From Xylanibacter ruminicola 23 (lineage in GTDB: Bacteria; Bacteroidota; Bacteroidia; Bacteroidales; Bacteroidaceae), in NCBI RefSeq assembly GCF_000025925.1, contig NC_014033.1, positions 2,550,001-2,582,000 on the forward strand: a stretch of DNA of 32,000 nt. Direction: 5' to 3'. Both the position numbers and the translations under genes were made by a program. Shown piece after piece: positions 4,499 through 30,958 of the stretch (its first letter is position 1; the number at the start of each line of letters is the position of its first letter). The notes under the pieces are model-generated. The model saw nothing but the letters and a program-made list of their open reading frames with translations, was not told the DNA's origin and did no database searches.

Positions 4499-4534
4499 GG
4501 GTGCTGCTAAAGAGTCATTTGCTCAGCAGCACCC
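4499..4534 (-). terminator. Hairpin between fusA and rpsJ (possible partial terminator/attenuator)
   Basis: Arms GGGTGCTGCT / AGCAGCACCC (10 bp, perfect) with a 16-nt loop. On the minus strand it is followed by CCTTTTAAAT. The U tract is short, so probably only partial termination or a processing/stability stem. Confidence 0.35.
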
Positions 4535-4545
4535 ATTTGTTATCT

Positions 4546-6672
4546 TTATACGAGGTCGGCACGGCCCTTAACCTCCTCCAGAACTGCCTTAGCGATAGAG
4601 CTTGACAGAGGAGCGTGGTGATCGTACTCCATTGAGCTGGTAGCACGACCTGAAGTGATGGTACGCAGAGCGGTTACATAACCGAACATCTCTGACAGGG
4701 GCACCTGAGCCTTAACAACACGGGCACCGCTGCGAGCCTCTTCCATACCCTCTACCTGGCCACGACGCTTGTTCAGGTCACCGATAACGTCACCCATGTT
4801 CTCCTCAGGTGTTACAACCTCGAGCTTCATGATAGGCTCCATCAGTACGGGCTTAGCCTGAGCGCATGCGTTCTTGTATGCCTGCAGAGCAGCGATCTCG
4901 AATGAGAGCTGGTCAGAGTCAACGGGGTGGAACGAACCGTCGAGTACAGTTACCTTCAGTGAATCCATTGGGTAACCACCGAGGATACCATTCTTCATAG
5001 CGTTCTCGAATCCCTTCTGGATAGATGGGATGAACTCCTTAGGAATGTTACCACCCTTAACCTCGTTAACGAACTGCAGACCGCCGTCCTTAGCGATATC
5101 CCAATCGTCGTCAACAGGACCAACGTTTACGATGATATCAGCGAACTTACCGCGACCACCCGACTGCTTCTTGTAAACCTCACGGAGGTTAACAGTCTTG
5201 GTGATGGCCTCCTTGTAGTTAACCTGAGGCTTACCCTGGTTACACTCAACCTTGAACTCACGCTTCAGACGGTCGATAATGATATCGAGGTGAAGCTCAC
5301 CCATACCTGAGATAATGGTCTGACCACTCTGCTCGTCGGTACGAACGGTGAATGTTGGGTCCTCCTCAGCGAGCTTAGCAAGACCGTTGTCGAGCTTAGC
5401 AACGTCGGCCTGAGACTTAGGCTCAACTGCGATAGAGATTACAGTGTCGGGGAAGCTCATTGACTCCAGTACGATAGGTGCATCCTCAGAGCAGAGGGTA
5501 TCACCAGTACGGATATCCTTGAAACCTACACCTGCGCCGATATCACCAGCGTCGATGCTCTCCATAGGAATTTCCTTGTTTGAGTTCATCTGGAACAGAC
5601 GGCTGATACGCTCCTTCTTACCCGAACGTGGGTTGTAAACGTATGATCCGGCAGTGATCTTACCAGAGTAAACGCGGAAGAATACCAGACGGCCCATGTA
5701 TGGGTCGGTAGCAATCTTAAAGGCCAGAGCCGATGTAGGCTCGTCCTCAGAAGGCTTACGATCCTCTTCCTCATCGGTATCAGGGTTGGTACCCTTAATA
5801 ACCTCTACGTCAACAGGTGCGGGCAGGAATGCACATACGTAGTCGAGCAGAGGCTGCACACCCTTGTTCTTATAAGAAGAACCGAGCAGCATAGGAGTAC
5901 ACTGCATTGAGATAGTACCCTTACGGATAGCAGCGATGATCTCGTCCTCAGTGATTGAGTTAGGATCGTCGAAGTACTTCTCCATCAGAGCCTCGTCGTA
6001 CTCAGCAGCAGCCTCAAGCAGCTTGTTACGCCACTCGTCGCACTCAGCCTCCAGGTCGGCGGGGATATCCTCAACATCGTACTCAGCACCCATGGTCTCA
6101 TCGTGCCACAGGATAGCCTTCATCTTGATCAGGTCAACCAGACCCTTGAAGTTCTCCTCAGCACCGATGGGCACCTGGATAACAACAGGGTTAGCACCCA
6201 GGATGTCCTTCATCTGCTGAACAGTCTCGAAGAAGTCAGCACCTGAACGGTCCATCTTATTAACGTAACCGATACGAGGTACGTTGTACTTGTCGGCCTG
6301 GCGCCATACAGTCTCTGACTGAGGCTGAACACCGTCGGCAGCTGAGTAAGTAGCAACAGCACCATCCAGTACACGGAGTGAACGCTCTACCTCAGCGGTA
6401 AAGTCAACGTGTCCCGGAGTATCGATCAAGTTGATCTTGAAGTTCTTACCATTCCATGTCCAGTTACAGGTGGTAGCAGCAGATGTGATAGTAATACCAC
6501 GCTCCTGCTCCTGAGCCATCCAGTCCATGGTAGCAGCTCCATCGTGTACCTCACCAATCTTATGAGTCTTACCTGTATAGAACAGGATACGCTCAGAAGT
6601 GGTTGTCTTACCGGCATCGATGTGAGCCATAATACCGATATTTCTTGTTAAATGTAAATCGCGGTTTGCCAT
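4546..6672 (-). CDS. fusA: Elongation factor G
   Basis: 708 aa. GTPase motifs [21 protein letters not shown]. Full-length EF-G architecture in str-operon context. Confidence 0.98.
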
Positions 6673-6706
6673 TGTTTTGTATCCTTTTAACTTCTTACCT
6701 TATTTA

Positions 6707-7183
6707 TTAGAAACGGAAGTGAGCAAATGCGCGGTTAGCCTCGGCCATGCGATGCATATCCTCCTTACGCTTGAAGGCACCACCCTGATTGTTGAAGGCG
6801 TCCATGATCTCAGCAGCCAGCTTATCGGCCATTGACTTACCAGAACGCTTACGAGCGAACTGAATCATGTTCTTCATTGAGATACTCTCCTTACGGTCGG
6901 GACGGATCTCAGTAGGTACCTGGAAAGTAGCACCACCGATACGGCGGCTCTTTACCTCTACCTGTGGGGTAATGTTGTCGAGAGCCTGCTTCCAGATCTC
7001 CAGGGCAGACTTCTCCTCGTTGTTCATTTTGCTCTTCACTGTCTCCAGTGCATTGTAGAAGATCTCATAAGACTTGGTCTTCTTACCATCAAACATCAGG
7101 TGGTTTACAAACTTAGACACCTTCTGATCGTTGAATACGGGATCTGGCAGGATCACACGCTTCTTTGGTTTTGCTTTTCTCAT
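6707..7183 (-). CDS. rpsG: 30S ribosomal protein S7
   Basis: 158 aa, [30 protein letters not shown]... ending ...[10 protein letters not shown] is canonical S7. Confidence 0.97.
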
Positions 7184-7339
7184 TTTGTTTTTGAATTAAA
7201 ATTCTGCTTGAGGGCTGTTCTTACTTGTTCTTCAACGTCACTTCGCTCGGACATTTACTCAACCTTTATAACATTATCTCCAGCAAAACGGATTAAATTT
7301 TTTGTTTCTTTTTGGCCTGACTGACCATCTCCGGTCATT

Positions 7340-7720
7340 TTACTTCTTAGCCTTTGGACGCTTAGCACCATACTTAGAACGGCGCTGTGTACGGTTAGCT
7401 ACACCAGCAGTATCAAGAGTACCGCGAACGATGTGGTAACGTACACCTGGCAGGTCCTTTACACGACCACCGCGAACAAGCACGATTGAGTGCTCCTGCA
7501 GGTTGTGTCCCTCTCCAGGGATGTAAGAGTTAACTTCCTTCTGATTTGTCAGACGAACACGGGCTACCTTACGCATAGCCGAATTAGGCTTCTTAGGTGT
7601 TGTTGTGTAAACACGTACGCAGACACCACGACGCTGAGGACAGTTGTCCAAAGCAGGTGACTTTGACTTGTCAACAATTACCTTTCTGCCTTTTCTTACC
7701 AATTGTGAAATTGTAGGCAT
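7340..7720 (-). CDS. rpsL: 30S ribosomal protein S12
   Basis: 126 aa, [13 protein letters not shown]...[31 protein letters not shown] is canonical S12. Confidence 0.97.
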
Positions 7721-20659: not shown

Positions 20660-20731
<72 letters not shown>

Positions 20732-20741
20732 ATGTTCTTTG

Positions 20742-20814
20742 AGCGGAAAACGGGGCTCAAACCCGCGACCCCCAGCTTGGAAGGCTAGTGCTCTATCAAC
20801 TGAGCTATTTCCGC
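20742..20814 (-). tRNA. tRNA-Gly (anticodon TCC)
   Basis: Minus strand GCGGAAA TA GCTC AGTTGATA GAGC A CTAGC CTTCCAA GCTGG GGGTC GCGGG TTTGAGC CCCGT TTTCCGC T, 73 nt. Confidence 0.93.
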
Positions 20815-20829
20815 AAACATCTCTTGTAG

Positions 20830-20912
20830 TGGGTGCTGATGGATTCGAACCACCGAAGTCGAAAGACAGCAGATTTACAGTCTGCCCCATTTGGCCACTC
20901 TGGAAAACACCC
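20830..20912 (-). tRNA. tRNA-Tyr (anticodon GTA), long variable arm
   Basis: Minus strand GGGTGTT...GCAGA CTGTAAA TCTGC TGTCTTTCGACTTC GGTGG TTCGAAT CCATC AGCACCC A. Class II tRNA, 83 nt. Confidence 0.92.
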
Positions 20913-21007
20913 ATGTCATTTTCGCTTATTAAGCGAGGGACGACCTTCCCTTTTGTTCTTTCGAACCAAGCGGATCGGCTTTCACCTATCCTCCTCCTTC
21001 CTTCTTG

Positions 21008-21081
21008 AGCCTCTTGTCGGATTCGAACCAACGACCCCGAGATTACAAATCACGTGCTCTGGCCAACTGAGCTAAAGAGGC
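21008..21081 (-). tRNA. tRNA-Thr (anticodon TGT)
   Basis: Minus strand GCCTCTT TA GCTC AGTTGGCCA GAGC A CGTGA TTTGTAA TCTCG GGGTC GTTGG TTCGAAT CCGAC AAGAGGC T, 74 nt. One U.U mismatch in the anticodon stem. Confidence 0.9.
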
Positions 21082-21523: not shown

Positions 21524-22405
21524 TCAGGCTCTTGGATGAGCCTCTTTGTAAATTCGCTTCAGCTGCTCAAACGTGGTGTGGGTATAAATCTCGGTTGTGC
21601 TCACACTGGCGTGTCCTAACAAGCTCTTGATTGTTTCCAACCCTGCACCGTTGTTCAGCATGGCAGTGGCAAAGGTGTGCCTAAGCACGTGTGGCGAACG
21701 TTTTTTCAGCGAGGTAACCATCGAAAGATACTTCTTTACGATCTGATAAACCTGACTGTCGGATATCCGTTGCCCCTTGTCACTCAGAAAAAGCGCGCCG
21801 CCGGTTTCGCCGAATTGTTCGTTGCGAGCAGTCTGATACTGCTTGAGCGCCTCGGCCAGCTCTGCCCCGAAGGGCACTATGCGCTGCTTATTCCTTTTTC
21901 CCGTTACTTTCAGTTGTGCCGCATCAAAGTCTACATCCTTATCGTTCAGACTTACAAGTTCCGCACGTCGTAAACCGGCCTCATAGAATAGTAATAATAT
22001 GGTACGCGCACGTACATTATTAAAAGAACTATCCCACTCTATGCCGTCTATCAGGCGGTCCATTTCTCCTTCGCGAAGGAACTGCGGCAGTGGTTTTGAT
22101 TTCTTTGGACCTATCACAGCATGTGCCGGATCGGTCTTAACCAGTTGTCTCTTTAGGGCAAAGCGGTAAAAGGAACGCAGTGCGCTCAATTTCTTATTGA
22201 TTGTTGAGGCAGAGTTTCCTTTATCCATGAGACTCTCCATCCAGTCACGGATCAGATCGGTATCTACCGAACTTATAGAGAGTTCTTTATCCCTAAAAGT
22301 CACATACGACTCAAAATCCCTAAGACTTTCCTCGTATGTCTGCACTGTTAGCGGAGATGTATTCCGCTCGTAGCGCAGGTAGTCCAGAAACTGGTTAATC
22401 ATCAT
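21524..22405 (-). CDS. Tyrosine site-specific recombinase, XerC/XerD-like
   Basis: 293 aa. N-terminal SAM-like core-binding domain (FLDYLRYERNTSPLTVQTYEESLRDF). Catalytic-domain motifs ...ARTILLLFYEAGLRRAEL..., PHVLRHTFATAML, LGHASVSTTEIYTH (R-H-R-Y signature). Confidence 0.9.
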   Translation of the reverse strand: MMINQFLDYLRYERNTSPLTVQTYEESLRDFESYVTFRDKELSISSVDTDLIRDWMESLMDKGNSASTINKKLSALRSFYRFALKRQLVKTDPAHAVIGPKKSKPLPQFLREGEMDRLIDGIEWDSSFNNVRARTILLLFYEAGLRRAELVSLNDKDVDFDAAQLKVTGKRNKQRIVPFGAELAEALKQYQTARNEQFGETGGALFLSDKGQRISDSQVYQIVKKYLSMVTSLKKRSPHVLRHTFATAMLNNGAGLETIKSLLGHASVSTTEIYTHTTFEQLKRIYKEAHPRA

Positions 22406-22480
22406 AAAATCGCAACCTTTAGTATTTGGGTACGAATTTACGGAAATTTCTCGAAACTACCAAATTTTCGGGGAACTTTT

Positions 22481-22672
22481 TTATTCCTCGTTAGCGCGAA
22501 GCTGCTGAACATATACAGCGTGCTCCATCTTAAGGCGCTTCAGTACAGATGGCTTGTCAAACTGCTGACGACGACGCAGCTCCTTTACAACACCTGTCTT
22601 CTCGAACTTTCTCTTGAACTTCTTGAGAGCCTTCTCAATGTTCTCGCCTTCCTTTACTGGTACAATAATCAT
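22481..22672 (-). CDS. rpsU: 30S ribosomal protein S21
   Basis: 63 aa, MIIVPVKEGENIEKALKKFKRKFEKTGVVKELRRRQQFDKPSV is canonical S21. Confidence 0.96.
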   Translation of the reverse strand: MIIVPVKEGENIEKALKKFKRKFEKTGVVKELRRRQQFDKPSVLKRLKMEHAVYVQQLRANEE

Positions 22673-22739
22673 TTGTTTTGCTTTTAATTATTTATGTTAA
22701 ACTTAATGCTTTCGGGCCCAGTGCCTCGAAAAGCGGGTG

Positions 22740-22747
22740 CAAAGTTA
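22740..22747 (-). promoter_or_regulatory. Bacteroidota -7 promoter box (TAACTTTG) for rpsU
   Basis: Plus strand CAAAGTTA equals minus-strand TAACTTTG. Lies about 68 nt upstream of the rpsU ATG. Confidence 0.5.
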
Positions 22748-22829
22748 CTGAATTTTTACAAAACAACCAAGTTTTTATACATTTTTTATCAAATTACACG
22801 CAAAATACTTGATTTTCAACACCATACCT

Positions 22830-24980
22830 CTAGCATTTCTGCCAGAGGTTGGTGTCAATCTTCACAATTTTGCCTTCTTTAACCCAACGGTAAATGATGG
22901 TCTTTACCACACCCGATTCACCATTTGCCAAACGGAGATTCACCAGATCTTCCTTTGAGAACTCCTTAGGCAGAGCATCCAGGTAGCGAATATTACCCTT
23001 TGAGACCTGAGCACTGATGGTGCCATCGCGCAAAGCATCAATCTTATTGCCATAAATCATCAACTGATAATGGAAACAACGCTCAGCATACCAGATGGCA
23101 AACTTAATGGCTCGCTCAGTTTCCTGCCTGCCTTCGAGCAGATAGGCGATGATGCCGGCACGGAAACCATTGAGTGCAGCACGACGACGAAGCACATCGA
23201 TAGAATATCGTAGTGTCTGCAGATACTCCTGACGCTTGCCTTCGTCCCACTCTTCGATGGCCTGATTGATAAGAGGCAAATCCACCTCACCCTCCTCGTC
23301 CATCAAGCATAGGCACTGGCGCTTCACTTTTTCCTCCTCTTCCTTGGTCCACGTCTTAAACTTAGGCATCTTGGCACCTACCATGTCAGGCAGAAGTACA
23401 GGCGTTACTCGGCTAACCAGACCACTCTCGGCATCGGCAAAGAAAGCACGGCACTTATTAGGTGTACCACACATCACCATATTATAATAGAGGGTGACCT
23501 TACCTGAGAACGAATCCTTTGAAATGCGGTGCTGTCCCCAAGGTTTGTTGTCGTAAGCCAATCGAAACAGGTCGTTCTTCTCTGTCCACGCACCTCCCTT
23601 GTTATTCTTCAGAACAGTCTCAATCTCAGGGGCATAGGTAAACAGATGCTTTCCCTTGGCATAGAGAGCTCGCTCTAGGAATGCCGACACACCGATGTTA
23701 GGTTCGATGATACGAATCTGACTGCAGGGATTCTCTACCTCTTCGCCGTTTTTCTTGGCCAGCGAATACTCGATTTCCTTCTGCCACTCCACCTCATCCT
23801 GCTTGATGATGGGATCCATCAGCAGTTCGTACTCAGTATCCACGAACGACTTACCCGTGGCCTGAGGCGCCTCGATATCCACTATAAAACTAGGCGAATT
23901 CAGTTTGCCGTCGCGATATTTGGCCCTGACACTTGTGGCCAATGTGCCAAGCATAGGCATGGCGGCCATCAGGGTAGCCTCGCGGAATTCTTCAGGAGCA
24001 TGATCGGAAAGGTCCTGAAGTATGCCAGGCAATTCCTTATCAACAGGTGCCACAAAAGCTTCGTCGTCACCATCCTGACCAGCTTCAGCTACTGCTCCCA
24101 AGGTGGACAGCACATCCTTCATAATCGAAGGCATATCCGAGGGACGGGTACTGCCCACAGCGCTTTTGATGGTAGAAATCGTCTCATGGTCCGACAGTCC
24201 CCAATGAGGAAGGATTGAGAAAAGCTTCTGCTCGTCGAAATCGCAGATAAAACGCATATAGCGACTCATCGTGTAAAGCGCCATATTACGCTCACCTTCG
24301 GCAGGAGCATCGCCATATCCCAACTTCAGGAGCAATCCCGATACGATGTTCTCATAAGGAATACCCTTGTAGTTCATTGAACATTCAGCATTAACCATTG
24401 AACATTCCTGTTCAGCCGATTTAGCTATCCGGTTGTTCTGAGAGGAATAAGAGGCTTTCTGCTCCTCGGTAAGAGGCTCGAACACCGCAGGATCGAGAAA
24501 CCTCACATACTGCTCACTAACCATAAAACAGCATCGGGCCAGGTCGGTAACATGCGAATCGTAACTTACCCCAAGTCGGGCAGCCAGTTTCTGGATATCC
24601 TCCTCGATGGTAGCCCCAGGTGTACGCCAAGCCCAGATGTGGGTACCACCTCCGGCACTCTCGGCAAAATACGCTATACGGCATTCGTCGATGAGGTTCT
24701 CCGTCCAAACCTTACCCCAGAGTTCCTCAGTTAGTCCCTTCTCATCGATGTCGAGGAAGAAAAGTCCCGAAGGTACAGCATCTTCAGCTTTACGGGTTCC
24801 GTTGGTAAAACACTCTGCAAGAGGCAGCCATACAGGCAGTTCCTTCTTGCGACTCAAATTCTTGTTCTGCTTCACGTCGGCGAGGATTTCCTCTACGTGA
24901 TTCTCCGCCAGCAGCTGACGGTAAGCAGCCATGCTCGCCTTGCGAGGCTTGCCGCTAAAAGATGATGCCATTTGTATCAT
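22830..24980 (-). CDS. Primase-helicase: AEP-type primase (BT4734/VirE-N-like) + PriCT-like + DUF3987-type P-loop domain
   Basis: 716 aa. N-terminal AEP-like motifs: DxD in GLFFLDIDEKG, sGxGxH-like ESAGGGTHIWAW, then DSHVTDLARCCFM. A middle GERNMALYTMSRYMRF resembles primase C-terminal (PriCT) domains. Walker-A-like EAPQATGKSF sits in the C-terminal half. A C-terminal wHTH-like tail follows. Family names are recalled from motifs and not searched. Confidence 0.75.
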   Translation of the reverse strand: MIQMASSFSGKPRKASMAAYRQLLAENHVEEILADVKQNKNLSRKKELPVWLPLAECFTNGTRKAEDAVPSGLFFLDIDEKGLTEELWGKVWTENLIDECRIAYFAESAGGGTHIWAWRTPGATIEEDIQKLAARLGVSYDSHVTDLARCCFMVSEQYVRFLDPAVFEPLTEEQKASYSSQNNRIAKSAEQECSMVNAECSMNYKGIPYENIVSGLLLKLGYGDAPAEGERNMALYTMSRYMRFICDFDEQKLFSILPHWGLSDHETISTIKSAVGSTRPSDMPSIMKDVLSTLGAVAEAGQDGDDEAFVAPVDKELPGILQDLSDHAPEEFREATLMAAMPMLGTLATSVRAKYRDGKLNSPSFIVDIEAPQATGKSFVDTEYELLMDPIIKQDEVEWQKEIEYSLAKKNGEEVENPCSQIRIIEPNIGVSAFLERALYAKGKHLFTYAPEIETVLKNNKGGAWTEKNDLFRLAYDNKPWGQHRISKDSFSGKVTLYYNMVMCGTPNKCRAFFADAESGLVSRVTPVLLPDMVGAKMPKFKTWTKEEEEKVKRQCLCLMDEEGEVDLPLINQAIEEWDEGKRQEYLQTLRYSIDVLRRRAALNGFRAGIIAYLLEGRQETERAIKFAIWYAERCFHYQLMIYGNKIDALRDGTISAQVSKGNIRYLDALPKEFSKEDLVNLRLANGESGVVKTIIYRWVKEGKIVKIDTNLWQKC

Positions 24981-25030
24981 ATCGGCGGCAAAGGTCGCAA
25001 GGGGTTTTGCACCTTCAAAATGGGATAATT

Positions 25031-26500
25031 CTAGCTAATAGTGCAATTATTCTTAGAGTTTGCTAACTGGTTATATTTCTGATAGATAGCACTAAAAACT
25101 TTTTTCAATTTTTCGTCTTCACTACTAAAACCTTCCTGAATATTCTTTCTGAATGTGTCAACATATCGTACCTCAGTAAGCTTTTGGGCTAAATCGCGGT
25201 CGGAATGGGCGCCAAACATTGCACTTTTTTTCATTTCTCCCACCAAATGACAGAAAAAGCGGGCAGTAAACTGATTATTATGCGGACTTTTACGAGTAAC
25301 CTTCAGGTGAGCAAATATGTTTTCATCCTCTATCAACTCCCTCCACATATTTATATAATGGGGCATCCACTTCTCGTCAAGAAGATTGGCGAGTTTATTG
25401 GCAGCATTTATCACAGCCTCGCCTATCTGCTGAACATCGGTGTTTACCAGCTGCTCTTGTCCGAACTTGGTGGTAGGATCCAGTTCGCGGGCAACTTCGC
25501 AAAGCGATGCAAGGTGGAAGATGAAATAGCGAATTTGTTCGTCGCTAAGTTGGGCCTCCTGAAAATCCCGGTCGAACGTCTCGCGATCGGCACTCCATTT
25601 GGCAAACAGTCCACCAGGTACTTGTGCCAGTTCCTGCAACTCTTTGCTGCGCTCGGCAGCCATCACTTCCATCCACGAGCAGCTATCGTTTACCACCCTG
25701 AGTGTATCACGACGTTCTTTCCAATAGGCCTCCCAGGTGTTGCTCTTTCGCACACGTGCCAATTCCTTATCAAGCAGGTTGGCCATTGCCTTGCCTTTAC
25801 TTCGGTTACTCTTCATAATGCTCACAAGCATTCCTGGCAATAGCATCAGAACCAACAGCCAAAGTATCATAACCTGCATATTGTTGGTTAAACCCGTACC
25901 TATCGAATCCATCGCTTGGTGTAATGTTTTAAAATAGGCGGTTGCCAAATCTTTATCCTGCGATGCATCTTTCTCGTTTATACTATTAACAATGGTGGCC
26001 ATCACTATCAAATCTTCTGGCTTAAGATGCTGAGCACAAACATACATAAAGTATTGCAATGGCGAACTTTCAGGCTGTGCGTTCTTAGCCTCTTGAGGTG
26101 GCATAGCAAAATACTGATTCATCATCTGCTGCGAAAGATCCACAAACGATACCGACTTATGCGCTAATGGCTCGCCCAAATAATTACTGGTAAGCGTTAT
26201 TACCGATTTGCGTAAACTGTTGTTGCACACCATCTTATCGATGCGATCCAGATACTCGGAATATAAAAATGCGCAAGGCATCTTATTCAGCTCGACCAAG
26301 GCCGTCATCGTACTCTGCATACGCATGATGGCTGCATAGACTTCAGCCTCAACACAAGTATCCATACCATCAGTCAGTTCCTGTACCAAGCACTCAAGCC
26401 GGTCGGCAGCCACCTGCCAATGACGGCACACCTGAACCGTTAATTGCTCAGTGCGCTCGTCGTCAACAATCTTTTTAATTTCTTCGGTCTTCATACTCAT
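25031..26500 (-). CDS. Hypothetical protein, all-helical with one central TM helix (orphan)
   Basis: The ORF track gives 25031..26518, but that start is a GTG inside the 32-bp palindrome. The first ATG is at 26500 (MSMKTEEIKK...). Single hydrophobic segment MQVMILWLLVLMLLPGMLVSIM near residue 215. I recognise no catalytic motif. The stop is 50 nt upstream of the primase-helicase start, so the two are probably co-transcribed. Confidence 0.65.
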   Translation of the reverse strand: MSMKTEEIKKIVDDERTEQLTVQVCRHWQVAADRLECLVQELTDGMDTCVEAEVYAAIMRMQSTMTALVELNKMPCAFLYSEYLDRIDKMVCNNSLRKSVITLTSNYLGEPLAHKSVSFVDLSQQMMNQYFAMPPQEAKNAQPESSPLQYFMYVCAQHLKPEDLIVMATIVNSINEKDASQDKDLATAYFKTLHQAMDSIGTGLTNNMQVMILWLLVLMLLPGMLVSIMKSNRSKGKAMANLLDKELARVRKSNTWEAYWKERRDTLRVVNDSCSWMEVMAAERSKELQELAQVPGGLFAKWSADRETFDRDFQEAQLSDEQIRYFIFHLASLCEVARELDPTTKFGQEQLVNTDVQQIGEAVINAANKLANLLDEKWMPHYINMWRELIEDENIFAHLKVTRKSPHNNQFTARFFCHLVGEMKKSAMFGAHSDRDLAQKLTEVRYVDTFRKNIQEGFSSEDEKLKKVFSAIYQKYNQLANSKNNCTIS

Positions 26501-26512
26501 TTCATGTTTATC

Positions 26513-26544
26513 GGTCACATGGTCACAGCTGTGACCATGTGACC
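26513..26544. repeat. Perfect 32-bp palindrome GGTCACATGGTCACAGCTGTGACCATGTGACC (copy 1)
   Basis: Verified base by base as its own reverse complement. It is built from four GGTCAC/GTGACC half-sites around a central CAGCTG and abuts the start of the orphan gene. Confidence 0.95.
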
Positions 26545-26633
26545 ATTTTATCCTTTTGATTATTTGTTTTTATTCGTAATTATCTATTTATCAACAAGTT
26601 AGTTACAACAAAACATCACATCTTCCTCACTGC

Positions 26634-26665
26634 GGTCACATGGTCACAGCTGTGACCACGTGACC
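26634..26665. repeat. 32-bp palindrome copy 2 (31/32 identical; GGTCACATGGTCACAGCTGTGACCACGTGACC)
   Basis: Same sequence as 26513-26544 except T to C at 26659. Both copies are preceded by CG and followed by ATT. The centres are 121 bp apart. Confidence 0.95.
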
Positions 26666-26688
26666 ATTACACCGTGAAGTAGTGCAGT

Positions 26689-26839
26689 TGCGAATACTAA
26701 TAGATGAAGGTGCGAATATTAAGCCTAGCAAGTACAAAGCCTAAGGCTAACAGGTACAAAATGCCTGTTTAAATATCGTTTGCCTATACTCAAACGATTG
26801 TGCGCCTATACGCAAACAACCGTTCGACTATACCCAATT
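26689..26839. repeat. Iteron-like array: three families of short direct repeats, each spaced exactly 22 bp
   Basis: TGCGAATAYTAA at 26689 and 26711. CTARCARGTACAAA at 26725 and 26747. GCCTATACNCAAAC at 26782 and 26804, plus a degenerate GACTATACCCAATT at 26826. Confidence 0.85.
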
Positions 26840-26870
26840 TCAATCGCACTCCAGCACCATCGTCATCTAT

Positions 26871-27491
26871 TTATATCTCTGTATAGATGTGCTCCTTGCC
26901 ACGTGGTGTCATCAGCAGTTTAGGATTGTCACCCTTAGTCCACTCCTGCAGTTGTTTACGGGCCGAATAGATTGTGAGCCCCGTAATTTGAGCAAACATG
27001 CTGGCTGTAATATAGCCGTTACGCTGCAAACAGTCACGCATCGTCAGCTCCAGTTTATCCTTATCGGCCAGTATCTCCTTGGTGTCAGGGTTATGATAGC
27101 GGCGGAATCCGTCGAGCCACTTCATAATCTCCCTTTCCCAAAACTTGCCAGGGTTATACTCCACGCCCTCAAGCCTTACATCGCGATCTTTCACCTGGTC
27201 GGCATCAGTCAACTGTTTGGCCAGCGACAACTTTGGTGCAAACGAACCTATCGGCGTATCAATGCGATAGCCCTCGGCCAGGAATCTACCCGCCACACGC
27301 ACAAAAGCATCCATCACCCTACTCAGTTCGCCATACCGCAGGTAGTTCATCCGCTCGCAGTAGTCCTCGAGCTGCTTCATGTTCAGCTTCATTCCACTTT
27401 TGGGACGGACATATACTATGTTTTGTCCATCTTCGCCCTTTACTGGGGTTCGATGAACCTCATACCACATTCCACTTTCTTTTCTAGGCAT
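26871..27491 (-). CDS. HU-like (Bacteroidales histone-like, HU_HIG-type) DNA-binding protein with C-terminal wHTH-like region
   Basis: ORF 26871..27551 trimmed to the ATG at 27491 (MPRKESGMWYEVHRTPVKGEDGQNIVYVRPKS...), which sits 27 nt downstream of a TAnnTTTG box. The N-terminal pattern (YxVHR.PVK..DG....YVRP ... G.RIDTPIGSF) resembles the Bacteroides putative HU-type DNA-binding proteins. The C-terminus NGYITASMFAQITGLTIYSARKQLQEW looks like an HTH. Confidence 0.7.
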   Translation of the reverse strand: MPRKESGMWYEVHRTPVKGEDGQNIVYVRPKSGMKLNMKQLEDYCERMNYLRYGELSRVMDAFVRVAGRFLAEGYRIDTPIGSFAPKLSLAKQLTDADQVKDRDVRLEGVEYNPGKFWEREIMKWLDGFRRYHNPDTKEILADKDKLELTMRDCLQRNGYITASMFAQITGLTIYSARKQLQEWTKGDNPKLLMTPRGKEHIYTEI

Positions 27492-27517
27492 ATACTTTAG
27501 CTTTTTAGTATCTGCTG

Positions 27518-27525
27518 CAAAGGTA
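27518..27525 (-). promoter_or_regulatory. Bacteroidota -7 promoter box (TACCTTTG) for the HU-like gene
   Basis: Plus strand CAAAGGTA equals minus-strand TACCTTTG. Located between the terminator at 27566-27606 and the ATG at 27491. Confidence 0.5.
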
Positions 27526-27565
27526 CACTTTTTATTGTATTTTACCAACAATCCACCTTATTTTT

Positions 27566-27606
27566 TTATAAAAAAGCGGCACCTCGCAGTGATTGAGGTG
27601 CCGCTT
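27566..27606 (-). terminator. Rho-independent terminator after the MNT gene (potentially bidirectional)
   Basis: Perfect 12-bp stem AAGCGGCACCTC / GAGGTGCCGCTT with a 9-nt loop. On the minus strand it is followed by TTTTTTATAAAAAAA. An A/T tract is also present on the other side. Confidence 0.8.
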
Positions 27607-27611
27607 ATGAT

Positions 27612-27917
27612 CTATGCTGCTTCGTAAAATATCTGCCCTACTCTATCGATATGGTCGCCTATTGGTGTACCTTTCTTTTTATTGTAATCAAGCAGATCGA
27701 TGGAGTACAGGAGTTCCAAATCATCAATCTCGCACAGAATGGTTAGTATCTGATTATAATCAACACCTTCGCCAATCACAGCCAGATCGATATCTGAACC
27801 TTCACGATAAGTTCCTTTCGACCGAGAGCCGAAAATCAGAACTTTCTTGATGTTCGCATGCCGACGAAACACATCTTGCAGTTCCTTAATAACAGTATCG
27901 CTTAGTCCAAATTTCAT
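27612..27917 (-). CDS. Minimal nucleotidyltransferase (MNT, HI0073-like), putative antitoxin
   Basis: 101 aa. Pol-beta-type NTase signature GSRSKGTYREGSDIDLAV (G-S-x9-11-D-x-D). Overlaps the upstream HEPN gene by 4 nt (ATGA). Confidence 0.85.
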   Translation of the reverse strand: MKFGLSDTVIKELQDVFRRHANIKKVLIFGSRSKGTYREGSDIDLAVIGEGVDYNQILTILCEIDDLELLYSIDLLDYNKKKGTPIGDHIDRVGQIFYEAA

Positions 27918-28354
27918 GCCTGTTTATAATCTTCGTTTTGTGAAAGCACGTTCAAATCTTCATCCAGTTTTTTCAGTAGCGGAGCATAGTTGCTATAAAT
28001 CAGCCTAACTATTGGCAGCACCTCTTCTTCATCGTAAACATGACTGAGCGTATTACGCGCCTTTGACATTTTACGCCAAGCATCATGATCACCGATAAGG
28101 CCATCGTCGAAAGCCATCTTTAGTGTACCATTTGGCCCCAACATAAATTCATACCCCTTATAAATCAGAATATCCTGCAACACCTTCCATGCCAATTCGA
28201 AAGTATACTCGAAGCGCTGCACCAGGCCCTCAACTTCCAACTCAGACAGGTCCTCCAAAAACCTGTCAGCCTCAGTCACCTCAACGAGTCTGCCACATGC
28301 CTTATGATAATTAGCATATCGCTGAATCCACCTTATATCTTTCTGCTCTTCCAT
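27914..28354 (-). CDS. HEPN-domain protein (nucleotidyltransferase substrate-binding, HI0074 family), putative toxin
   Basis: 146 aa, helical. R-x4-H HEPN motif in KARNTLSHVYDEE. The pattern RFEYTFELAWKVLQD is typical of the HI0074 family. Paired with an MNT gene. Confidence 0.82.
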   Translation of the reverse strand: MEEQKDIRWIQRYANYHKACGRLVEVTEADRFLEDLSELEVEGLVQRFEYTFELAWKVLQDILIYKGYEFMLGPNGTLKMAFDDGLIGDHDAWRKMSKARNTLSHVYDEEEVLPIVRLIYSNYAPLLKKLDEDLNVLSQNEDYKQA

Positions 28355-28377
28355 TTCTGAAATCCATTATTTGCGGG

Positions 28378-28385
28378 CAAATATA
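28378..28385 (-). promoter_or_regulatory. Bacteroidota -7 promoter box (TATATTTG) for the HEPN-MNT operon
   Basis: Plus strand CAAATATA equals minus-strand TATATTTG, 24 nt upstream of the HEPN ATG at 28354. Confidence 0.5.
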
Positions 28386-28574
28386 CAATGTTTTTTTCAA
28401 ATTAGCAAGCAAACACAACAAAATATGCGAAAAAACGGCAGGTATTCTTCCATCCGAAAGCAGCAATTTTTGAGAATTCTGAGGTTTTGTGGCAAGAAAA
28501 AATCACCAAAACAGAGATGTTCTTAAAAAAATATAATTCTTCTATTTAGTTTTTGAGGAATGGACAAAAACGTC

Positions 28575-28582
28575 TACTTTTG
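28575..28582 (+). promoter_or_regulatory. Bacteroidota -7 promoter box (TACTTTTG) for the thioredoxin-fold gene
   Basis: Plus strand TACTTTTG matches TAnnTTTG, 28 nt upstream of the ATG at 28610. Confidence 0.5.
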
Positions 28583-28609
28583 CATCCACTCAAGAAACAA
28601 TAATTAAAA

Positions 28610-30955
28610 ATGAAGAAACTTTTATCAACTATCGTGCTGGCTATAACCTGTGTGGCTGCGTTGGCGCAAAAATCCAAAGTGTGGGATGATGTCATTACTG
28701 GTTATTGCAACATTCCCGTTATCGATATAACCAAAGTTACGTTTACGCCAGATAGTACCGAAGTGTGCATGCGGCTTAGTTTTCGAGCTGGCAAGCAGTT
28801 TGGATTCACCAGTGGCACACATCTGAAAGTAGGTACTCAGCAGTACGCCGTCAAGAACGCAACCGTTATCAAACTCAACGAGGGTTACACCATGCCTACT
28901 GATACGGTAGACTTCTCGCTGATATTTAATCCTGCACCACTCGGCACCACGCGGATGGATTTGATTGAACCCGCAGGTTTAACGTTCTCGAACATTCATG
29001 GAGCTGGCGAGATTCCTGATGGCATCATTGATACCTATTGGCGCAACAATGCTACAGGCGATTGGCTGATAGGTTTTGCTGTCAACCACGTGATATATAA
29101 TAATAAGGTGTGGGATATCGCCACGCTGACAAACAATAAGGATGCTTACACCATTGCCCTTACCGATGGGCCAATCATCAAGGTAGGAAAGTTAAAGAAG
29201 AGTAAGCGCACCATCGGTATCGACCAGCAAAAGGGCATCGTATGTAGTCCCATCACCACAGCTACTATGCCCGATTATCCTACAAAGGATATGCGCAAGG
29301 GATTTGTAGACAACGGTTATCGTGCAGGCGACAGCGTAACCATCGTTGGCTGGCTGAAAGATATGCCAGAACAGGCATGGAAACAGAGTGGAGAGTTTGA
29401 AGCAATCATCAGTCACCTCATCATCGATAATCAGGAAAGATATACCACAAAACTCGACTCGCTGGGGCGTTTCACCCTGCGTTTCCCATTGGTCAATTCG
29501 TCAGACGCCTTCCTTGATCTGCGCCGTTCTTCTGTTTCACCAGTACTTGAGCCTGGCAAGACCTATTTCTTCCTCAAGGACTTTAAGACTGGACAAGTGT
29601 TGTTTATGGGCGATGATGCCCGCTTGCAGAACGAACTTGCTGCCTGTCCTGCAGCATGGGGTTATCGACGCATCAATCAAGGCGAGGATGCGATGCAGTT
29701 CAAGACACGTATGGATGGCATCTGTGAGGCGATGAAGGCTGAGATACAGGAGAACATTGCAAAGCGCCCCAATCTCTCGCAACGCTATATCGACTACGTG
29801 AATGGCTTGTGTTTGGCTGGTCAAGGAGAATCGATGATGCAGGCACGTTTCGTAGTGCCTGGCAAAGAATTGCCAAAGGAGTATATGGATTACGTCACCA
29901 CGCAACTATGGCAGAAAATGCCTAAACCCTATACACTCTTTATGCCCTTCTCAACCTTTATGCGCGACTATCTCGACCAAGTGGTAACAGAGCGTCATGG
30001 CGTAAAAATTGATCGTTACACCATTACCTTGCCCGAAGGGGCCTATCCCACCATTCTGCGCCGGGCTAAGGCTGACGGCAGGGTGTCGATTACCGACGAT
30101 GAGATAGCCCTTGTAGAGCGTTATGCAGAAGCATATCGTAAGGAGTATGCTGCTCAAGCCCAAAACCAGAAAATAGATAGTCTTAACATCAATATTAGCA
30201 ACAGCTACTCTGAGCAATATCTTGCCATTATGGAGCGCCCTGATGTAAAGACTGTGATAGATGAAGAGAGTACGTTGGTTGATATCTACTACCAGCTAGA
30301 GGCTGTAAAATCAACGAATCCTGACCCAGCTTTGATAGACTTGGCCTTGGCTCACAGATTCTATTGGACGCTCAACAGCTTCCGCAAGTCATTAGCCCCC
30401 GCTGCGCTGAACTTTGCGCTGCAAGAAATCAAGTTGCCTGCTGCACTCGATATTGTGAAGACAACAAACGACAAGTACATAGCCCTTGAGCATCAAGATT
30501 TGACTAATGCAGCCAGCCTGCGTCCATCTACCGATGTGGAGAATATGACCGATGGCGAGAAGATGCTACGTAAGATTATCGAGCCATACAAGGGGCGCGT
30601 TATCTACCTCGATGTGTGGGGCACATGGTGCGGACCATGTAAGCAGCGGCTAAAAGACTCGTGGAAGGAGAAGGAGGCACTCAAGGATTTAGATATTGTA
30701 TACCTCTATCTCTGTAACGGCAGCAGCGACGAATCGTGGAAGAATGTCATCAAGGAGTATAACTTAGCAGGTCCCAACTGCGTTCATTACAATCTGCCCA
30801 AAGAGCAGCAGAGTGCCATCGAGCGTTACCTGAACGTACAAGGCTTTCCCACCTATAAAATCATAGACAAGCAAGGCAACATCCACGACCTGGATTGGCT
30901 CCACGCTGACGACATGGAGGCATTCAAACAGACTATGGAAAAGTTCTGCAAGTAA
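28610..30955 (+). CDS. Secreted protein with C-terminal TlpA-like thioredoxin domain (WCGPC active site)
   Basis: 781 aa. Signal peptide MKKLLSTIVLAITCVAALAQ. About 640 aa of unassigned N-terminal sequence. The C-terminal thioredoxin fold has VIYLDVWGTWCGPCKQ ... GFPTYKIIDKQGN. Confidence 0.85.
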   Translation: MKKLLSTIVLAITCVAALAQKSKVWDDVITGYCNIPVIDITKVTFTPDSTEVCMRLSFRAGKQFGFTSGTHLKVGTQQYAVKNATVIKLNEGYTMPTDTVDFSLIFNPAPLGTTRMDLIEPAGLTFSNIHGAGEIPDGIIDTYWRNNATGDWLIGFAVNHVIYNNKVWDIATLTNNKDAYTIALTDGPIIKVGKLKKSKRTIGIDQQKGIVCSPITTATMPDYPTKDMRKGFVDNGYRAGDSVTIVGWLKDMPEQAWKQSGEFEAIISHLIIDNQERYTTKLDSLGRFTLRFPLVNSSDAFLDLRRSSVSPVLEPGKTYFFLKDFKTGQVLFMGDDARLQNELAACPAAWGYRRINQGEDAMQFKTRMDGICEAMKAEIQENIAKRPNLSQRYIDYVNGLCLAGQGESMMQARFVVPGKELPKEYMDYVTTQLWQKMPKPYTLFMPFSTFMRDYLDQVVTERHGVKIDRYTITLPEGAYPTILRRAKADGRVSITDDEIALVERYAEAYRKEYAAQAQNQKIDSLNINISNSYSEQYLAIMERPDVKTVIDEESTLVDIYYQLEAVKSTNPDPALIDLALAHRFYWTLNSFRKSLAPAALNFALQEIKLPAALDIVKTTNDKYIALEHQDLTNAASLRPSTDVENMTDGEKMLRKIIEPYKGRVIYLDVWGTWCGPCKQRLKDSWKEKEALKDLDIVYLYLCNGSSDESWKNVIKEYNLAGPNCVHYNLPKEQQSAIERYLNVQGFPTYKIIDKQGNIHDLDWLHADDMEAFKQTMEKFCK

Positions 30956-30958
30956 TTA

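Follow-up and report, generated by a model that had tools for sequence, protein, structure and literature searches.

Modules that combine an AEP with a PriCT-DUF3987 protein are replication modules of mobile elements (PMC11724360, PMC5862659). One example close to the locus described herein is the BT4734-like AEP AgaPP and its PriCT-DUF3987 partner from mobile elements of Flavobacteriia, where the host element is flanked by a tRNA, encodes an integrase, and also carries a long-B pAgo (PMC11724360). The Prevotella protein carries an AEP of the same family and the same PriCT, DUF3987, and small C-terminal domains as the AgaPP partner, and the two systems share variable accessory or defence neighbours. 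Two loci (L035 and L046) even have the Prevotella gene divided at the point that separates the AgaPP pair, giving one AEP ORF and one PriCT-DUF3987 ORF. In contrast to the AgaPP module, the Prevotella module has all domains fused, lacks an integrase, a tRNA site, and a pAgo, and adds an obligatory 487-aa orphan protein and an array of palindromic sites.

A prim-pol domain followed by a helical bundle or PriCT, a P-loop helicase, and a C-terminal winged helix is also found in NrS-1 polymerase, pRN1 ORF904-type proteins, and the primase of Clavibacter phage CMP1, in which the winged helix is thought to read the origin (reviewed in PMC5862659). The AF2 model of the 716-aa Prevotella protein matches phage primase or prim-pol plus DUF3987 proteins over its full length (Foldseek, best E 2e-15), and a profile search with this protein weakly matched the NrS-1 primase at motifs I-II. 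However, these phage and plasmid initiators are found on autonomous replicons, whereas the Prevotella family is chromosomal and lies between housekeeping genes.

The site array resembles REP/BIME repeats and their RAYT proteins (PMC3333891, PMC2817692, PMC3116915) in that extragenic palindromes occur as pairs separated by a constant distance, an IHF site lies between the two members as in BIME-1, the cognate gene is single-copy and has repeats beside it, and inheritance is apparently vertical. It differs in its low copy number, in its 32-bp palindromes of four half-sites, and in the presence of an AEP primase-helicase instead of an HUH Y1 transposase. In addition, a neighbouring 206-aa protein is a clear member of the Bacteroidota HU-HIG clade, for which almost no conserved gene linkage has been reported (PMC5499826). 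Unlike this picture of the clade, the HU-HIG gene lies upstream of the core in 20 of 35 Prevotella loci (it is missing from the other 15) and adjoins distant relatives in all three contexts looked up, namely in Bacteroidaceae, Alloprevotella, and a metagenome contig. The HU-HIG protein is a frequent, though not obligatory, partner of the core.

Viral origins served by SF3 helicases also carry palindromic half-site arrays, as in site II of SV40 large T, the papillomavirus E1 site, and the origin of phage P4 alpha (octamer iterons and 120-bp crr repeats). As at the Prevotella locus, four short half-sites are set head to head in a perfect palindrome near an AT-rich tract, and their reader is a hexameric helicase with a fused DNA-binding domain, a role that we propose below for the 716-aa protein. 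No sequence relation is known between these viral origins and the Prevotella module, whose units, unlike the viral ones, repeat with a 121-bp period, carry a bend site at their centre, and are dispersed around the chromosome.

An Accessory Island between pepP and rpsU

The window analysed is a 32,000-nt stretch of the Xylanibacter ruminicola 23 chromosome. Comparison with genomes in which pepP directly adjoins rpsU (L051, L053, L054, L055, and L058) delimits an inserted block at approximately 22804-30958. Its left edge is the first base after the pepP stop, and its right edge falls within 22804-22829, just beyond the primase-helicase stop. Partly deleted alleles occupy the same site in L050, L056, and L059, and some close relatives retain the HU-HIG gene and a deletion scar; the flanks of relatives with empty or scarred alleles are 94-98% identical. 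Because full, partly deleted, and empty states occur at one site in close relatives, the block is an accessory island, probably an accreted one, between pepP and rpsU. The partial-deletion alleles retain 72 bp of the helicase 3′ end, which indicates illegitimate deletion and rules out precise excision.

The initial annotation, made from this sequence alone, had placed a module at 22830-28354. Its five minus-strand genes, promoter boxes, terminator, and repeat-dense spacer are all present there, but the true block is larger and takes in a 781-aa secreted thioredoxin-like (TlpA/ResA-type) gene (28610-30955, plus strand) that is absent from L004 and from the empty-site genomes. Nor do the five genes form one module, as had been proposed. 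The HEPN gene (146 aa, 27914-28354, minus strand) overlaps the MNT gene (101 aa, 27612-27917, minus strand) by 4 bp. The recognition of this pair is upheld by domain matches (NTase_sub_bind, 105.5 bits, and TIGR01987, 85.2 bits, for HEPN, both over cut-off; Polbeta, 71.2 bits, for MNT), and a TAnnTTTG box, TATATTTG (28378-28385, minus strand), and a terminator with hairpin and T-run (27570-27604, minus strand) can be read from the sequence. This toxin-antitoxin-type pair is separate cargo, because it is a fusion relic in L004, has a disrupted HEPN gene in L057, and is absent beside the core in most genomes. The block is a composite in which the thioredoxin-like gene and HEPN-MNT are cargo and the palindromes, the orphan gene, and the 716-aa helicase gene are the conserved core. 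The core genes have a GC3 like that of the chromosomal core, and HEPN and MNT have lower values (0.39 and 0.47, respectively). In L004, the divergence of the AEP-helicase (87%) parallels that of Xer (87%) and PepP (90%).

No integrase, relaxase, transposase, or capsid gene is present in the block or within 10 kb beyond it, which extends an absence already noted by the initial annotation. The nearby XerC/D-like gene (21524-22405) had been suspected of belonging to a conserved rpsU-recombinase-hpf arrangement, and the rpsU-xer-hpf trio was indeed found in 10 of 10 rpsU loci examined, island-less genomes included.

Proteins and Cis Signals of the Core

The 716-aa primase-helicase (22830-24980, minus strand) comprises a BT4734-type AEP primase domain (residues ~45-165), a PriCT-like helical domain (~205-300), a DUF3987 AAA+/MCM-like helicase domain (~320-655), and a C-terminal winged helix (~660-716). 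Taken alone, this protein has only a sub-threshold DUF3987 match (24.5 bits; cut-off 27). Of the 52 family members that were aligned, 39 match BT4734-like_N (PF08800) and 46 match DUF3987 (PF13148). Residues D77/D79, G112, D141, R149, G229/R231 (EGERN motif), G376-K377-S378, and E452 are invariant or nearly so, with the DxD, D141, and Walker A/B residues being invariant. The AF2 model (pLDDT 89.8) has a C-terminal H-H-wing fold and matches MCM-type helicases in the PDB (Foldseek). The alignment, the invariant residues, and the structural matches thus bear out the original AEP-primase/PriCT/P-loop helicase assignment. Identity ranges from 65 to 96% over 43 GTDB species loci. The core was present in 41 of 42 rumen Prevotella genome loci, with different flanks and at differing chromosomal positions, and an integrase accompanied it in none of them.

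The orphan gene is always situated between the palindromes and the primase-helicase gene. Its product has 487 aa if translation starts at the ATG that gene callers choose (25031-26494, minus strand) or 495 aa from a GTG at 26518. It is all-alpha, with one strongly hydrophobic segment (residues 208-226, Kyte-Doolittle KD19 mean 2.64) that is probably a transmembrane helix, in agreement with its earlier description as a single-TM protein of ~490 aa. Searches of Pfam, NCBIfam, PHROG, and PADLOC gave no match, and 701 homologues were found. The orphan evolves faster than the adjacent primase-helicase (54-66% versus ~85% identity), its central part is fast-evolving, and its AF2 model reaches a pLDDT of only 47.9.

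The HU-HIG protein (206 aa from an ATG, 26871-27491, minus strand; 226 aa from a TTG at 27551) consists of an HU domain (PF18291, 50.4 bits) and a C-terminal extension. Its gene is preceded by a TAnnTTTG box, TACCTTTG (27518-27525, minus strand), as had been recognized along with the HU-like character of the protein.

Between the HU-HIG and orphan genes lies the non-coding, repeat-dense block of about 350 bp reported previously (26519-26870), which holds two palindromes, three iterons, and two direct repeats. Palindrome P2 (26513-26544; arms GGTCACATGGTCACAG and CTGTGACCATGTGACC) abuts the orphan start codon and contains four GGTCAC half-sites, two forward and two reverse. P1 (26634-26665) has one mismatch relative to P2 and is 121 bp from it; the two are copies of a 32-bp perfect palindrome for which sequence shuffles expect 0 occurrences. 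An IHF-type site, TATCAACAAGTTA (26589-26601, plus strand), sits centrally in the 70% A+T spacer between P1 and P2 and exactly matches the E. coli IHF consensus WATCAANNNNTTR.

Across loci, the palindromes are invariant and the intervening spacer is divergent. WATCAANNNNTTR occurs in 41 of 86 distinct spacers compared to 1.1 ± 1.1 in shuffles, although this consensus comes from E. coli and might not hold for a Bacteroidota HU-HIG protein. The matches always lie within ~6-9 nt of the spacer centre. The 121-bp period is seen in 50 of the 86 spacers, which are 70% AT, and arrays upstream of the protein gene contain one to five units. Three GTATAGG-type iterons (26783-26789, 26805-26811, and 26827-26833, within 26775-26833, minus strand), spaced ~22 bp apart and each in a short hairpin-like repeat, are kept in all 19 loci that were aligned, as well as in L033 and L130. 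A repeat search further revealed two direct repeats of the form TTTGTACYTG-N-TAGSCTTA (26720-26760, minus strand), which in relatives have the consensus CCCTG-N4-CCTTA in two to four copies.

Residue 697 Covaries with the Palindrome Half-Site

Codon 697 of the primase-helicase (TAC, Tyr; 22890-22892, minus strand) falls within VVKTIIYRWVKE, which is the recognition helix of the winged helix. This residue is Y or W in 19 loci with GGTCAC half-sites and C in 11 loci with GGTTAC half-sites (30/30 in the association test). It is the sole perfectly associated column among 795 alignment columns, and the residues beside it are otherwise invariant. At least eight independent switches are placed on a neighbour-joining tree whose internal branches are short. 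The pairing is also concordant in five additional GTDB loci (L022, L023, L025, L029, and L031) and eight metagenome contigs, with no discordant case. Other combinations are H697 with GGTAAC in one locus (L033) and S697 with TGTAAC in L034. No column of the orphan or HU-HIG alignments is comparably associated with palindrome type. Given that residue 697 tracks the half-site type, the primase-helicase very probably binds the palindromes, with residue 697 setting the specificity.

Proposed Function and Alternatives

We consider it somewhat probable that the core is a chromosomally resident, integrase-less initiator-and-site module that is inherited mainly vertically in rumen Prevotella, whose chromosomal position and neighbours vary, and which can be removed by deletion. 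Based on the covariation, the C-terminal winged helix of the 716-aa helicase very probably reads the GGTCAC half-sites, four per 32-bp palindrome, upstream of its own operon. A 121-bp separation of the palindromes, with a bend site midway in the AT-rich sequence between them, suggests folding by an HU-family protein, which would act at the central HU/IHF-type site such that two initiator assemblies meet. The adjacent HU-HIG protein would be the obvious candidate, and its absence from 15 of 35 loci and the lack of covariation of any HU-HIG column with any motif count against this proposal. Related primase-helicases of phages and plasmids suggest that the assembly would most likely serve to load the helicase-primase on DNA and so start DNA synthesis locally, in an origin-like manner. 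Since P2 abuts the orphan start codon, the orphan/helicase operon would be repressed as a by-product. The orphan membrane protein would be an obligatory partner, and HEPN-MNT and the thioredoxin-like gene would be unrelated cargo accumulated next to the core.

One possible, if clearly less probable, alternative is that the palindrome-IHF site-palindrome unit is a dispersed, non-autonomous repeat and the primase-helicase its cognate trans-acting protein in a RAYT-like role. The protein would then bind every genomic copy and act to maintain, duplicate, or exploit it, for instance as a site of priming or loading. Consistent with such a role, the unit occurs without module genes in ~87 of 113 metagenome contigs, at ordinary intergenic positions beside housekeeping genes and often just past a gene 3′ end. 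In half-site type, these sites show the same purity as arrays linked to the genes (77 pure, 10 mixed), and only five retain a relic of the orphan gene. The protein gene, preceded by its one to five units, is usually single per assembly and, at the rpsU site that genomes share, seems to have been inherited vertically, and the layout mirrors the REP-IHF site-REP order of E. coli BIME-1/RIP (PMC3333891, PMC2817692). However, copy number is low, with no palindrome away from gene-linked or relic sites in 875 kb of other Bacteroidales DNA, compared to more than 100 REPs per genome (PMC2817692), and the protein is an AEP-helicase and not an HUH nuclease, with no predicted cutting or joining activity. 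The ~87 contigs that lack a nearby replication gene also count against the initiator-and-site proposal, and the presence of the unit at so many such sites means that the unit alone is insufficient to define an origin. Both this dispersal and the protein-DNA covariation lie beyond what the reading of a single sequence could reveal.

We regard as a little less probable still that the palindromes are simply operators that repress the orphan/helicase operon, with the enzyme finding its real substrate elsewhere, such as in repair or in priming on damaged or foreign DNA. Replication initiators commonly autoregulate, and the position of P2 against the orphan start codon fits a plain operator as well as it fits the initiator-and-site proposal. 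The only candidate promoter region lies between P1 and P2, and a canonical TAnnTTTG box lies just 3′ of the last palindrome in L009, L015, L021, and L047. Moreover, one characterised BT4734-type AEP has repair-type activities (PMC11724360). In contrast, an operator does not call for anything as elaborate as up to five units that repeat at a fixed 121-bp period with a bend site in the centre, and pure copies of the unit that have no adjacent module gene leave nothing to autoregulate.

It is improbable that the core is a remnant or cryptic part of a mobile element, be it an integrated plasmid, a prophage, or a helper-dependent satellite whose integrase is elsewhere or lost. Presence/absence polymorphism between pepP and rpsU, sites that differ by species, accessory neighbours (RM, AbiE, AAA_14/DUF4143, PDDEXK_4, and DUF2779), the structural kinship with phage primase-helicases, and distant relatives beside Amidase_2 and YopX-like genes all favour this origin. 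However, the 127 flanking ORFs include no recurrent family of integrase type, and in 24 loci the 5 kb on either side hold no recurrent integrase, relaxase, transposase, or capsid family. Relatives are absent from 72,556 plasmids, neither relatives nor palindromes occur in IMG/VR, and a phage collection gave only two weak matches (~25% identity) on unannotated 4-5.5 kb fecal contigs; this lack of any known free replicon likewise weighs against the initiator-and-site proposal. The satellite reading offered by the initial annotation finds no support in these searches or in the gene content, which includes no packaging or integrase genes. Its suggestion of a decayed integrated replicon is not supported for a core whose genes are intact in ~40 species, with invariant catalytic residues and a core-like GC3, and whose partial deletions are illegitimate.

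A defence system formed by the HU-HIG, membrane, and primase-helicase proteins against phages or plasmids is very improbable: a role in biological conflicts has been predicted for HU-HIG (PMC5499826), some BT4734-type AEPs are linked to CRISPR or to retrons/DRTs (PMC11724360), the neighbours are often defence or toxin-antitoxin genes, and the orphan is fast-evolving in its centre, but the three core proteins have no PADLOC match and no effector-like nuclease or toxin domain, and a self-encoded, conserved binding-site array in tight co-evolution with its protein points to self-directed activity rather than to a foreign-DNA target.

We retain the initiator-and-site proposal for the palindromes, the orphan, and the primase-helicase of rumen Prevotella, and this core may represent a new kind of chromosomal replication-type element.

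Results

Covariation Between the Primase-Helicase and a 32-bp Palindrome

The DNA between the HU-HIG and orphan genes holds three kinds of element: three iterons of the GTATAGG type, spaced about 22 bp apart (26783-26833); a pair of CCCTG-N4-CCTTA-type repeats (26720-26760); and two copies of a 32-bp perfect palindrome, GGTCACATGGTCACAG-CTGTGACCATGTGACC (P1, 26634-26665; P2, 26513-26544). These elements account for the repeat-dense noncoding block described in the initial annotation. Across the genome loci and metagenome contigs compared with the window (given L numbers here), palindrome arrays comprise 1-5 copies, and the palindromes themselves do not vary, unlike the spacers that separate them. 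Of 86 distinct spacers, 50 have a period of exactly 121 bp. In 41 of the 86, an exact WATCAANNNNTTR is found no more than about 6-9 nt from the spacer center (1.1 ± 1.1 in shuffles); this sequence is the E. coli IHF consensus and may not apply to a Bacteroidota HU-HIG protein. The matching site in the window is TATCAACAAGTTA (26589-26601).

Palindromes occur as two types, GGTCAC and GGTTAC, with a single type extending over all half-sites of a locus. Only 1 of the 795 columns in the primase-helicase alignment is perfectly associated with this type, namely that of residue 697: all 11 GGTTAC loci have Cys here, whereas the 19 GGTCAC loci have Tyr (18) or Trp (1). The orphan protein and HU-HIG have no comparable column, their best values being 0.90 and 0.79, respectively. 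Residue 697 resides in the recognition helix, VVKTII[Y/C]RWVKE, of a C-terminal winged helix; its neighbors are otherwise invariant, and both synonymous codons are found for each residue at this position. Palindrome type has changed at least eight times on a neighbor-joining tree. Five additional genome loci (L022, L023, L025, L029, and L031) and eight metagenome contigs are concordant with the association, and none are discordant. Moreover, locus L033 combines His697 with GGTAAC half-sites, and L034 combines Ser697 with TGTAAC.

The covariation of residue 697 with half-site type is strong computational evidence that half-site position 4 is read by the winged helix. As judged from this covariation, the primase-helicase co-evolves with the palindrome. 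Given the same covariation and spacers that are 70% A+T, the region contains the predicted repeated initiator sites and the AT-rich stretch that characterize iteron/palindrome-type origins.

Several other explanations for the repeats were considered and dropped. An invertible promoter is inconsistent with palindromes that are self-symmetric, with arrays of up to five copies, and with the lack of a linked invertase, the Xer gene being absent at most loci. CRISPR-like repeats do not fit spacers that are diverged copies of one another with a common central motif. A hairpin in RNA or single-stranded DNA as the sole constraint was rejected since all tandem half-sites change together, beyond what pairing needs. 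A known RNA family was likewise rejected, as an Rfam search of 22400-28700 yielded only sub-threshold matches of the miRNA-precursor type, caused by the inverted repeats. A scan for the sigma-70 consensus located 11 sites against 11.2 expected and was thus uninformative.

The GTATAGG iterons are replaced by short, unrelated tandem repeats beside the palindromes at L031:8150-8350, L074:3540-3680, L083:345-480, L113, and L022:1-160. Examples include a 21-bp GTATTAGCTGTATACAGACCT (4-6 copies), an CACGGTTTGA-type repeat (about 10 copies), and TGTCAAC / TCAGGAAAAG. Such replacements suggest that the cis region is modular, with iteron sets that may be exchangeable. At L046:5900-6133, a long inverted repeat (about 35 bp per arm by eye) takes the place of the palindromes, and the primase-helicase gene is also split; this locus may be a degenerating copy or carry an insertion of another small element. 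In L130 (2407-3306) and L173, a 299-327-aa ORF, by eye a putative HTH/WYL-type regulator, occupies the HU-HIG position upstream of a complete iteron and palindrome region, which is followed by a large peptidase gene and not by the orphan and helicase genes.

The Primase-Helicase and Its Neighbors

ORF calling confirmed all five minus-strand genes proposed previously. The 716-aa product (22830-24980, minus strand) had been called an AEP/PriCT/P-loop helicase, and this call is correct on evidence at both the family and structure levels; we describe the protein as a predicted AEP primase/PriCT/DUF3987 helicase. BT4734-like AEP domains (PF08800) are distinguished by motifs I (hhhDhD), II (sxH, often K/R in the family), and III (hD), and putative catalytic counterparts of all three are present in the window protein. 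Among 52 aligned sequences, motif I (LFFLDID) has invariant D77 and D79, motif II (SAGGGTH) has a near-invariant G112 and an H114 where the family consensus is R, and motif III has an invariant D141 and a near-invariant R149. The Walker A residues G376-K377-S378 are invariant in the same set, as is E452. A PriCT-type motif, EGERNxxLY, follows the AEP region, with G229 and R231 invariant and the segment helical in the AF2 model, and no PriCT Pfam match is obtained for the window protein or the 52 relatives.

The window protein itself has no match in a Pfam search for PF08800, which is matched by 39 of the 52 homologs (best E 2e-14) and is precomputed for homologs at 33-35% identity. Similarly, its DUF3987 (PF13148) score of 24.5 bits falls below the cut-off of 27, and 46 of the 52 relatives match. 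The AF2 model (pLDDT 89.8) predicts a C-terminal helix-helix-wing domain (helices 676-685 and 693-701, strands 705-715). In Foldseek searches, the modeled C-terminal half resembles MCM-type AAA+ helicases in the PDB (E 1.5e-5), and the whole chain resembles phage primase, prim-pol, and DUF3987 proteins (best E 2e-15). The family profile also weakly matches NrS-1 primase at motifs I-II. Direct searches of PHROGs, NCBIfam, and PADLOC with the 716-aa protein returned nothing, and a single-sequence PDB search gave only noise.

Among described proteins, AgaPP and its PriCT-DUF3987 partner are the most closely related (PMC11724360). A low-complexity linker of variable length, ECSMVNAECSMN (residues 184-203; 24372-24431), separates the AEP and PriCT regions and is modeled with pLDDT <50. 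In two MAGs (L035 and L046), the gene is split at this linker into an AEP ORF of 206-220 aa and a PriCT-DUF3987 ORF of 516-523 aa. AgaPP and its partner are arranged in this way, but the split could also be an assembly error.

The orphan, a probable membrane protein (487 aa from its ATG; 25031-26494, minus strand), has no match in Pfam, PHROGs, NCBIfam, or PADLOC. It has a single strongly hydrophobic helix (residues 208-226), and its AF2 model is all-alpha at low confidence (pLDDT 47.9). No Pfam match, DUF4248 included, was obtained for this protein, for two distant orphans, or for the small ORFs that flank the gene on both sides in distant relatives. At L029:6417-9860, in one MAG, a 1148-aa ORF lies between the orphan and primase-helicase genes.

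The profile searches proposed in the initial annotation place three of the five products in known families, but leave the primase-helicase sub-threshold when searched alone and the orphan without a match. The 206-aa HU-HIG protein (26871-27491, minus strand) scores 50.4 bits against a PF18291 cut-off of 26.2 (residues 30-141 of a 226-aa reading), and its gene is preceded by a TACCTTTG box read from the sequence (27518-27525). The remaining two genes, also on the minus strand, overlap by 4 bp. HEPN (146 aa; 27914-28354) matches NTase_sub_bind (PF08780, 105.5 bits) and TIGR01987 (85.2 bits, cut-off 55.8), whereas MNT (101 aa; 27612-27917) matches Polbeta (PF18765, 71.2 bits) and scores 45.1 with the MntA equivalog model, below its cut-off of 60. 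These family matches, together with a TATATTTG box read at 28378-28385 and a hairpin and T-run terminator at 27570-27604, agree with the earlier description of a HEPN-MNT pair with its own box and terminator. By family membership it is of the HI0073/HI0074 type, a putative type VII toxin-antitoxin.

A Conserved Core in Variable Surroundings

A scan of GTDB species genomes with a four-sequence alignment, which reaches close relatives only and therefore gives a narrow sample, located 43 loci (42 usable), all in rumen Prevotellaceae. The orphan and primase-helicase genes are paired in 41 of the 42. Identity to the window is 65-96% for the helicase and, outside the closest strains (99% in L048), 21-64% for the orphan. 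Flanks differ in nearly every species; among the 43 loci, the core lies at rpsU only in L004 (a P. ruminicola MAG) and in the window lineage. Of the 35 loci with sufficient upstream sequence, 20 have a window-type HU-HIG gene directly upstream of the core. Within 5 kb of 24 loci, a Pfam census of 127 ORFs recovered AAA_14, PDDEXK_4, DUF4143, ATPase_2, Sigma70_r2 fragments, AbiEii, DUF2779, and ordinary metabolic genes, with no recurring integrase, relaxase, or transposase family.

More distant relatives (33-35% identity) in Bacteroidaceae, Alloprevotella, and a metagenome contig also adjoin HU-HIG amid housekeeping genes, with no integrase in any of the three contexts. The HU-HIG/AEP-helicase linkage therefore looks order-wide, as far as gene neighborhoods indicate. 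In contrast, HU-HIG genes have been reported to be almost entirely without conserved linkages (PMC5499826). In these three distant loci (L060, L062, and L064), a 71-120-aa ORF precedes the AEP-DUF3987 gene and overlaps its start, and the neighbors include one or two HU-HIG genes, with Amidase_2 in L062 and L064 and a YopX-like ORF in L064; this seems to be a recurrent Bacteroidales cluster without published description. An exhaustive search places relatives of the 716-aa protein in 1,399 clusters at 50% identity.

An Accessory Island Between pepP and rpsU

Ten rpsU loci were collected by identity of the RpsU protein. Five (L051, L053, L054, L055, and L058) are empty, with pepP directly followed by rpsU, and the block is complete in L052, L057, and the window. 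In L050, L056, and L059, pepP is separated from rpsU by HU-HIG, a single palindrome, and the final 72 bp of the primase-helicase gene. Alignment reveals that the L056-type allele reflects a 3.6-kb deletion from just past P2 to window position 22902, together with a second deletion that removed a thioredoxin-like gene and HEPN-MNT and ended in the middle of the MNT terminator. In L004, the core is kept at the pepP|rpsU site; beside it (1110-7400), a HEPN-N/MNT-C fusion relic stands in for an intact HEPN-MNT pair, and an AAA_14/DUF4143 ATPase and two restriction-modification DNA methylases (N6_Mtase and N6_N4_Mtase) replace the thioredoxin-like gene. Compared with the window, L004 indicates that the pepP-proximal edge acts as a hotspot of cargo turnover.

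From the alleles at rpsU and the empty-site genomes, we conclude that the inserted block spans about 22804-30958 and was built in layers. The module originally delimited at 22830-28354 is thus accessory, as proposed, but it is part of a larger block that did not arrive in one piece. In the comparison of relatives suggested at that time, the island is present, partly deleted, or absent. The core genes do not differ from the flanking translation genes in GC or GC3, both of which are lower only in MNT and HEPN, and a composition anomaly was accordingly rejected. The rpsU-xer-hpf trio, previously proposed as a conserved arrangement, is present in all ten loci, and the Xer gene is for this reason assigned to the chromosomal core. 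Elsewhere in the window, several overlapping spurious ORFs on both strands between tuf and hpf (20711-21075) are taken as a putative tRNA gene cluster.

The island might be regarded as a cryptic mobile element. Its accessory, layered nature is evident, and the core pair is intact, conserved, and without a linked integrase. There are no integrase, relaxase, capsid, or transposase genes in the block, as first noted from the sequence, and neither these nor other recombinase or packaging genes lie within 10 kb of it, apart from the core Xer gene. No flanking direct repeats that could serve as attachment sites were found, and the endpoints of the partial-deletion alleles fall within the helicase gene and the MNT terminator. 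The island therefore lacks the integrase and precise att boundaries that define an ICE, IME, prophage, or satellite. Relatives of the initiator are found on 0 of 72,556 plasmids, and IMG/VR contains neither protein relatives nor the palindrome. Phage records yielded two weak matches (about 25% identity) on unannotated fecal contigs of 4-5.5 kb, and we do not assign the system to plasmid or phage replicons. The data support neither a decayed integrated replicon, given the intact and conserved core pair, nor a phage satellite, both of which had been entertained.

Dispersed Palindrome Units

An exact-match scan of JGI metagenome contigs recovered at least 120 stretches with the palindrome, and 113 contigs were analyzable. 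Among the matches listed, the orphan or helicase gene is beside the palindrome in about 26 of the 113, and the unit is in ordinary intergenic DNA in about 87. These dispersed units are typically palindrome-spacer-palindrome pairs, often located 10-60 bp beyond a gene's 3′ end, and their neighbors are housekeeping genes with no enriched family. Half-site type in the listed matches is pure at 77 and mixed at 10 sites without core genes, and pure in 50 and mixed in 3 gene-linked arrays, a similar degree of purity. At only five of the dispersed sites among the matches listed does a trace of the orphan gene persist, and deletion of the gene pair was accordingly dropped as an origin common to all of these sites; palindrome scars do arise by this route, as in L050, L056, and L059. 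In L087, a rumen metagenome contig, palindrome units bracket an MNT-HEPN (DUF86-type) pair (285-1507), with two upstream (285-430) and one downstream (about 1478).

Discussion

We infer that the palindrome pair and its central bend site form an assembly platform for the initiator, with HU-HIG or another HU/IHF protein as the likely bender. This platform would serve helicase-primase loading and origin-like firing, and it may also be autoregulatory because P2 abuts the orphan start codon.

One alternative is that the primase-helicase is the trans-acting partner of palindrome-bend site-palindrome units throughout the genome. The protein would then act at many chromosomal sites by loading at the units, priming from them, or copying them, as a vertically inherited replicator similar to REPIN/RAYT in which an AEP primase and MCM-like helicase replace the HUH transposase. 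In E. coli, BIME-1/RIP elements have the layout REP-IHF site-REP, and each RAYT gene has its REPs on both sides (PMC3333891, PMC2817692, and PMC3116915). The units described here recall both features, but they are far scarcer, and the protein is an AEP-helicase rather than an HUH enzyme. REP/BIME systems with RAYT have more than 100 extragenic palindromes per genome and an HUH Y1 transposase flanked by them. Dispersed extragenic copies do exist in our case, but at fewer than one per 875 kb away from the module genes: no palindrome apart from gene-linked or relic sites was found in 875 kb of other Bacteroidales DNA, and copy number is low. We consider this alternative unlikely. If it were true, the fast co-switching of residue 697 and half-sites would represent co-evolution with an entire population of sites.

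An origin-like platform can also be weighed against pure autoregulation, which would share the placement of P2 at the orphan start codon and leave firing aside. A defense system is a further rival, against which stands the empty PADLOC search with the core proteins.

The primase-helicase family, the HEPN-MNT pair, and HU-HIG are already known. In the literature searched, we found no description of an integrase-less chromosomal module of this kind, its obligatory orphan partner, or its linkage to HU-HIG, nor of a palindrome with a one-residue specificity code, the 121-bp bend-site architecture, or the dispersal of units.

BT4734/DUF3987-type AEP primase-helicases are very common in Bacteroidota chromosomes and are usually dismissed as mobile-element leftovers. 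The defined 32-bp palindrome is the first concrete candidate DNA target for this family, and the fixed 121-bp architecture with its central bend site is part of that candidate target. Within it, a single recognition-helix residue would predict the base read (Tyr-C, Cys-T, and His-A). For the enigmatic HU-HIG proteins, the locus likewise provides a candidate site together with a specific partner. Should the module fire replication or serve the dispersed units, it would represent a new, integrase-free form of chromosomal persistence for a selfish or domesticated replication system, with possible consequences that include rearrangement of the genome, changes in local gene dosage, and the accumulation of accessory islands in dominant rumen bacteria.
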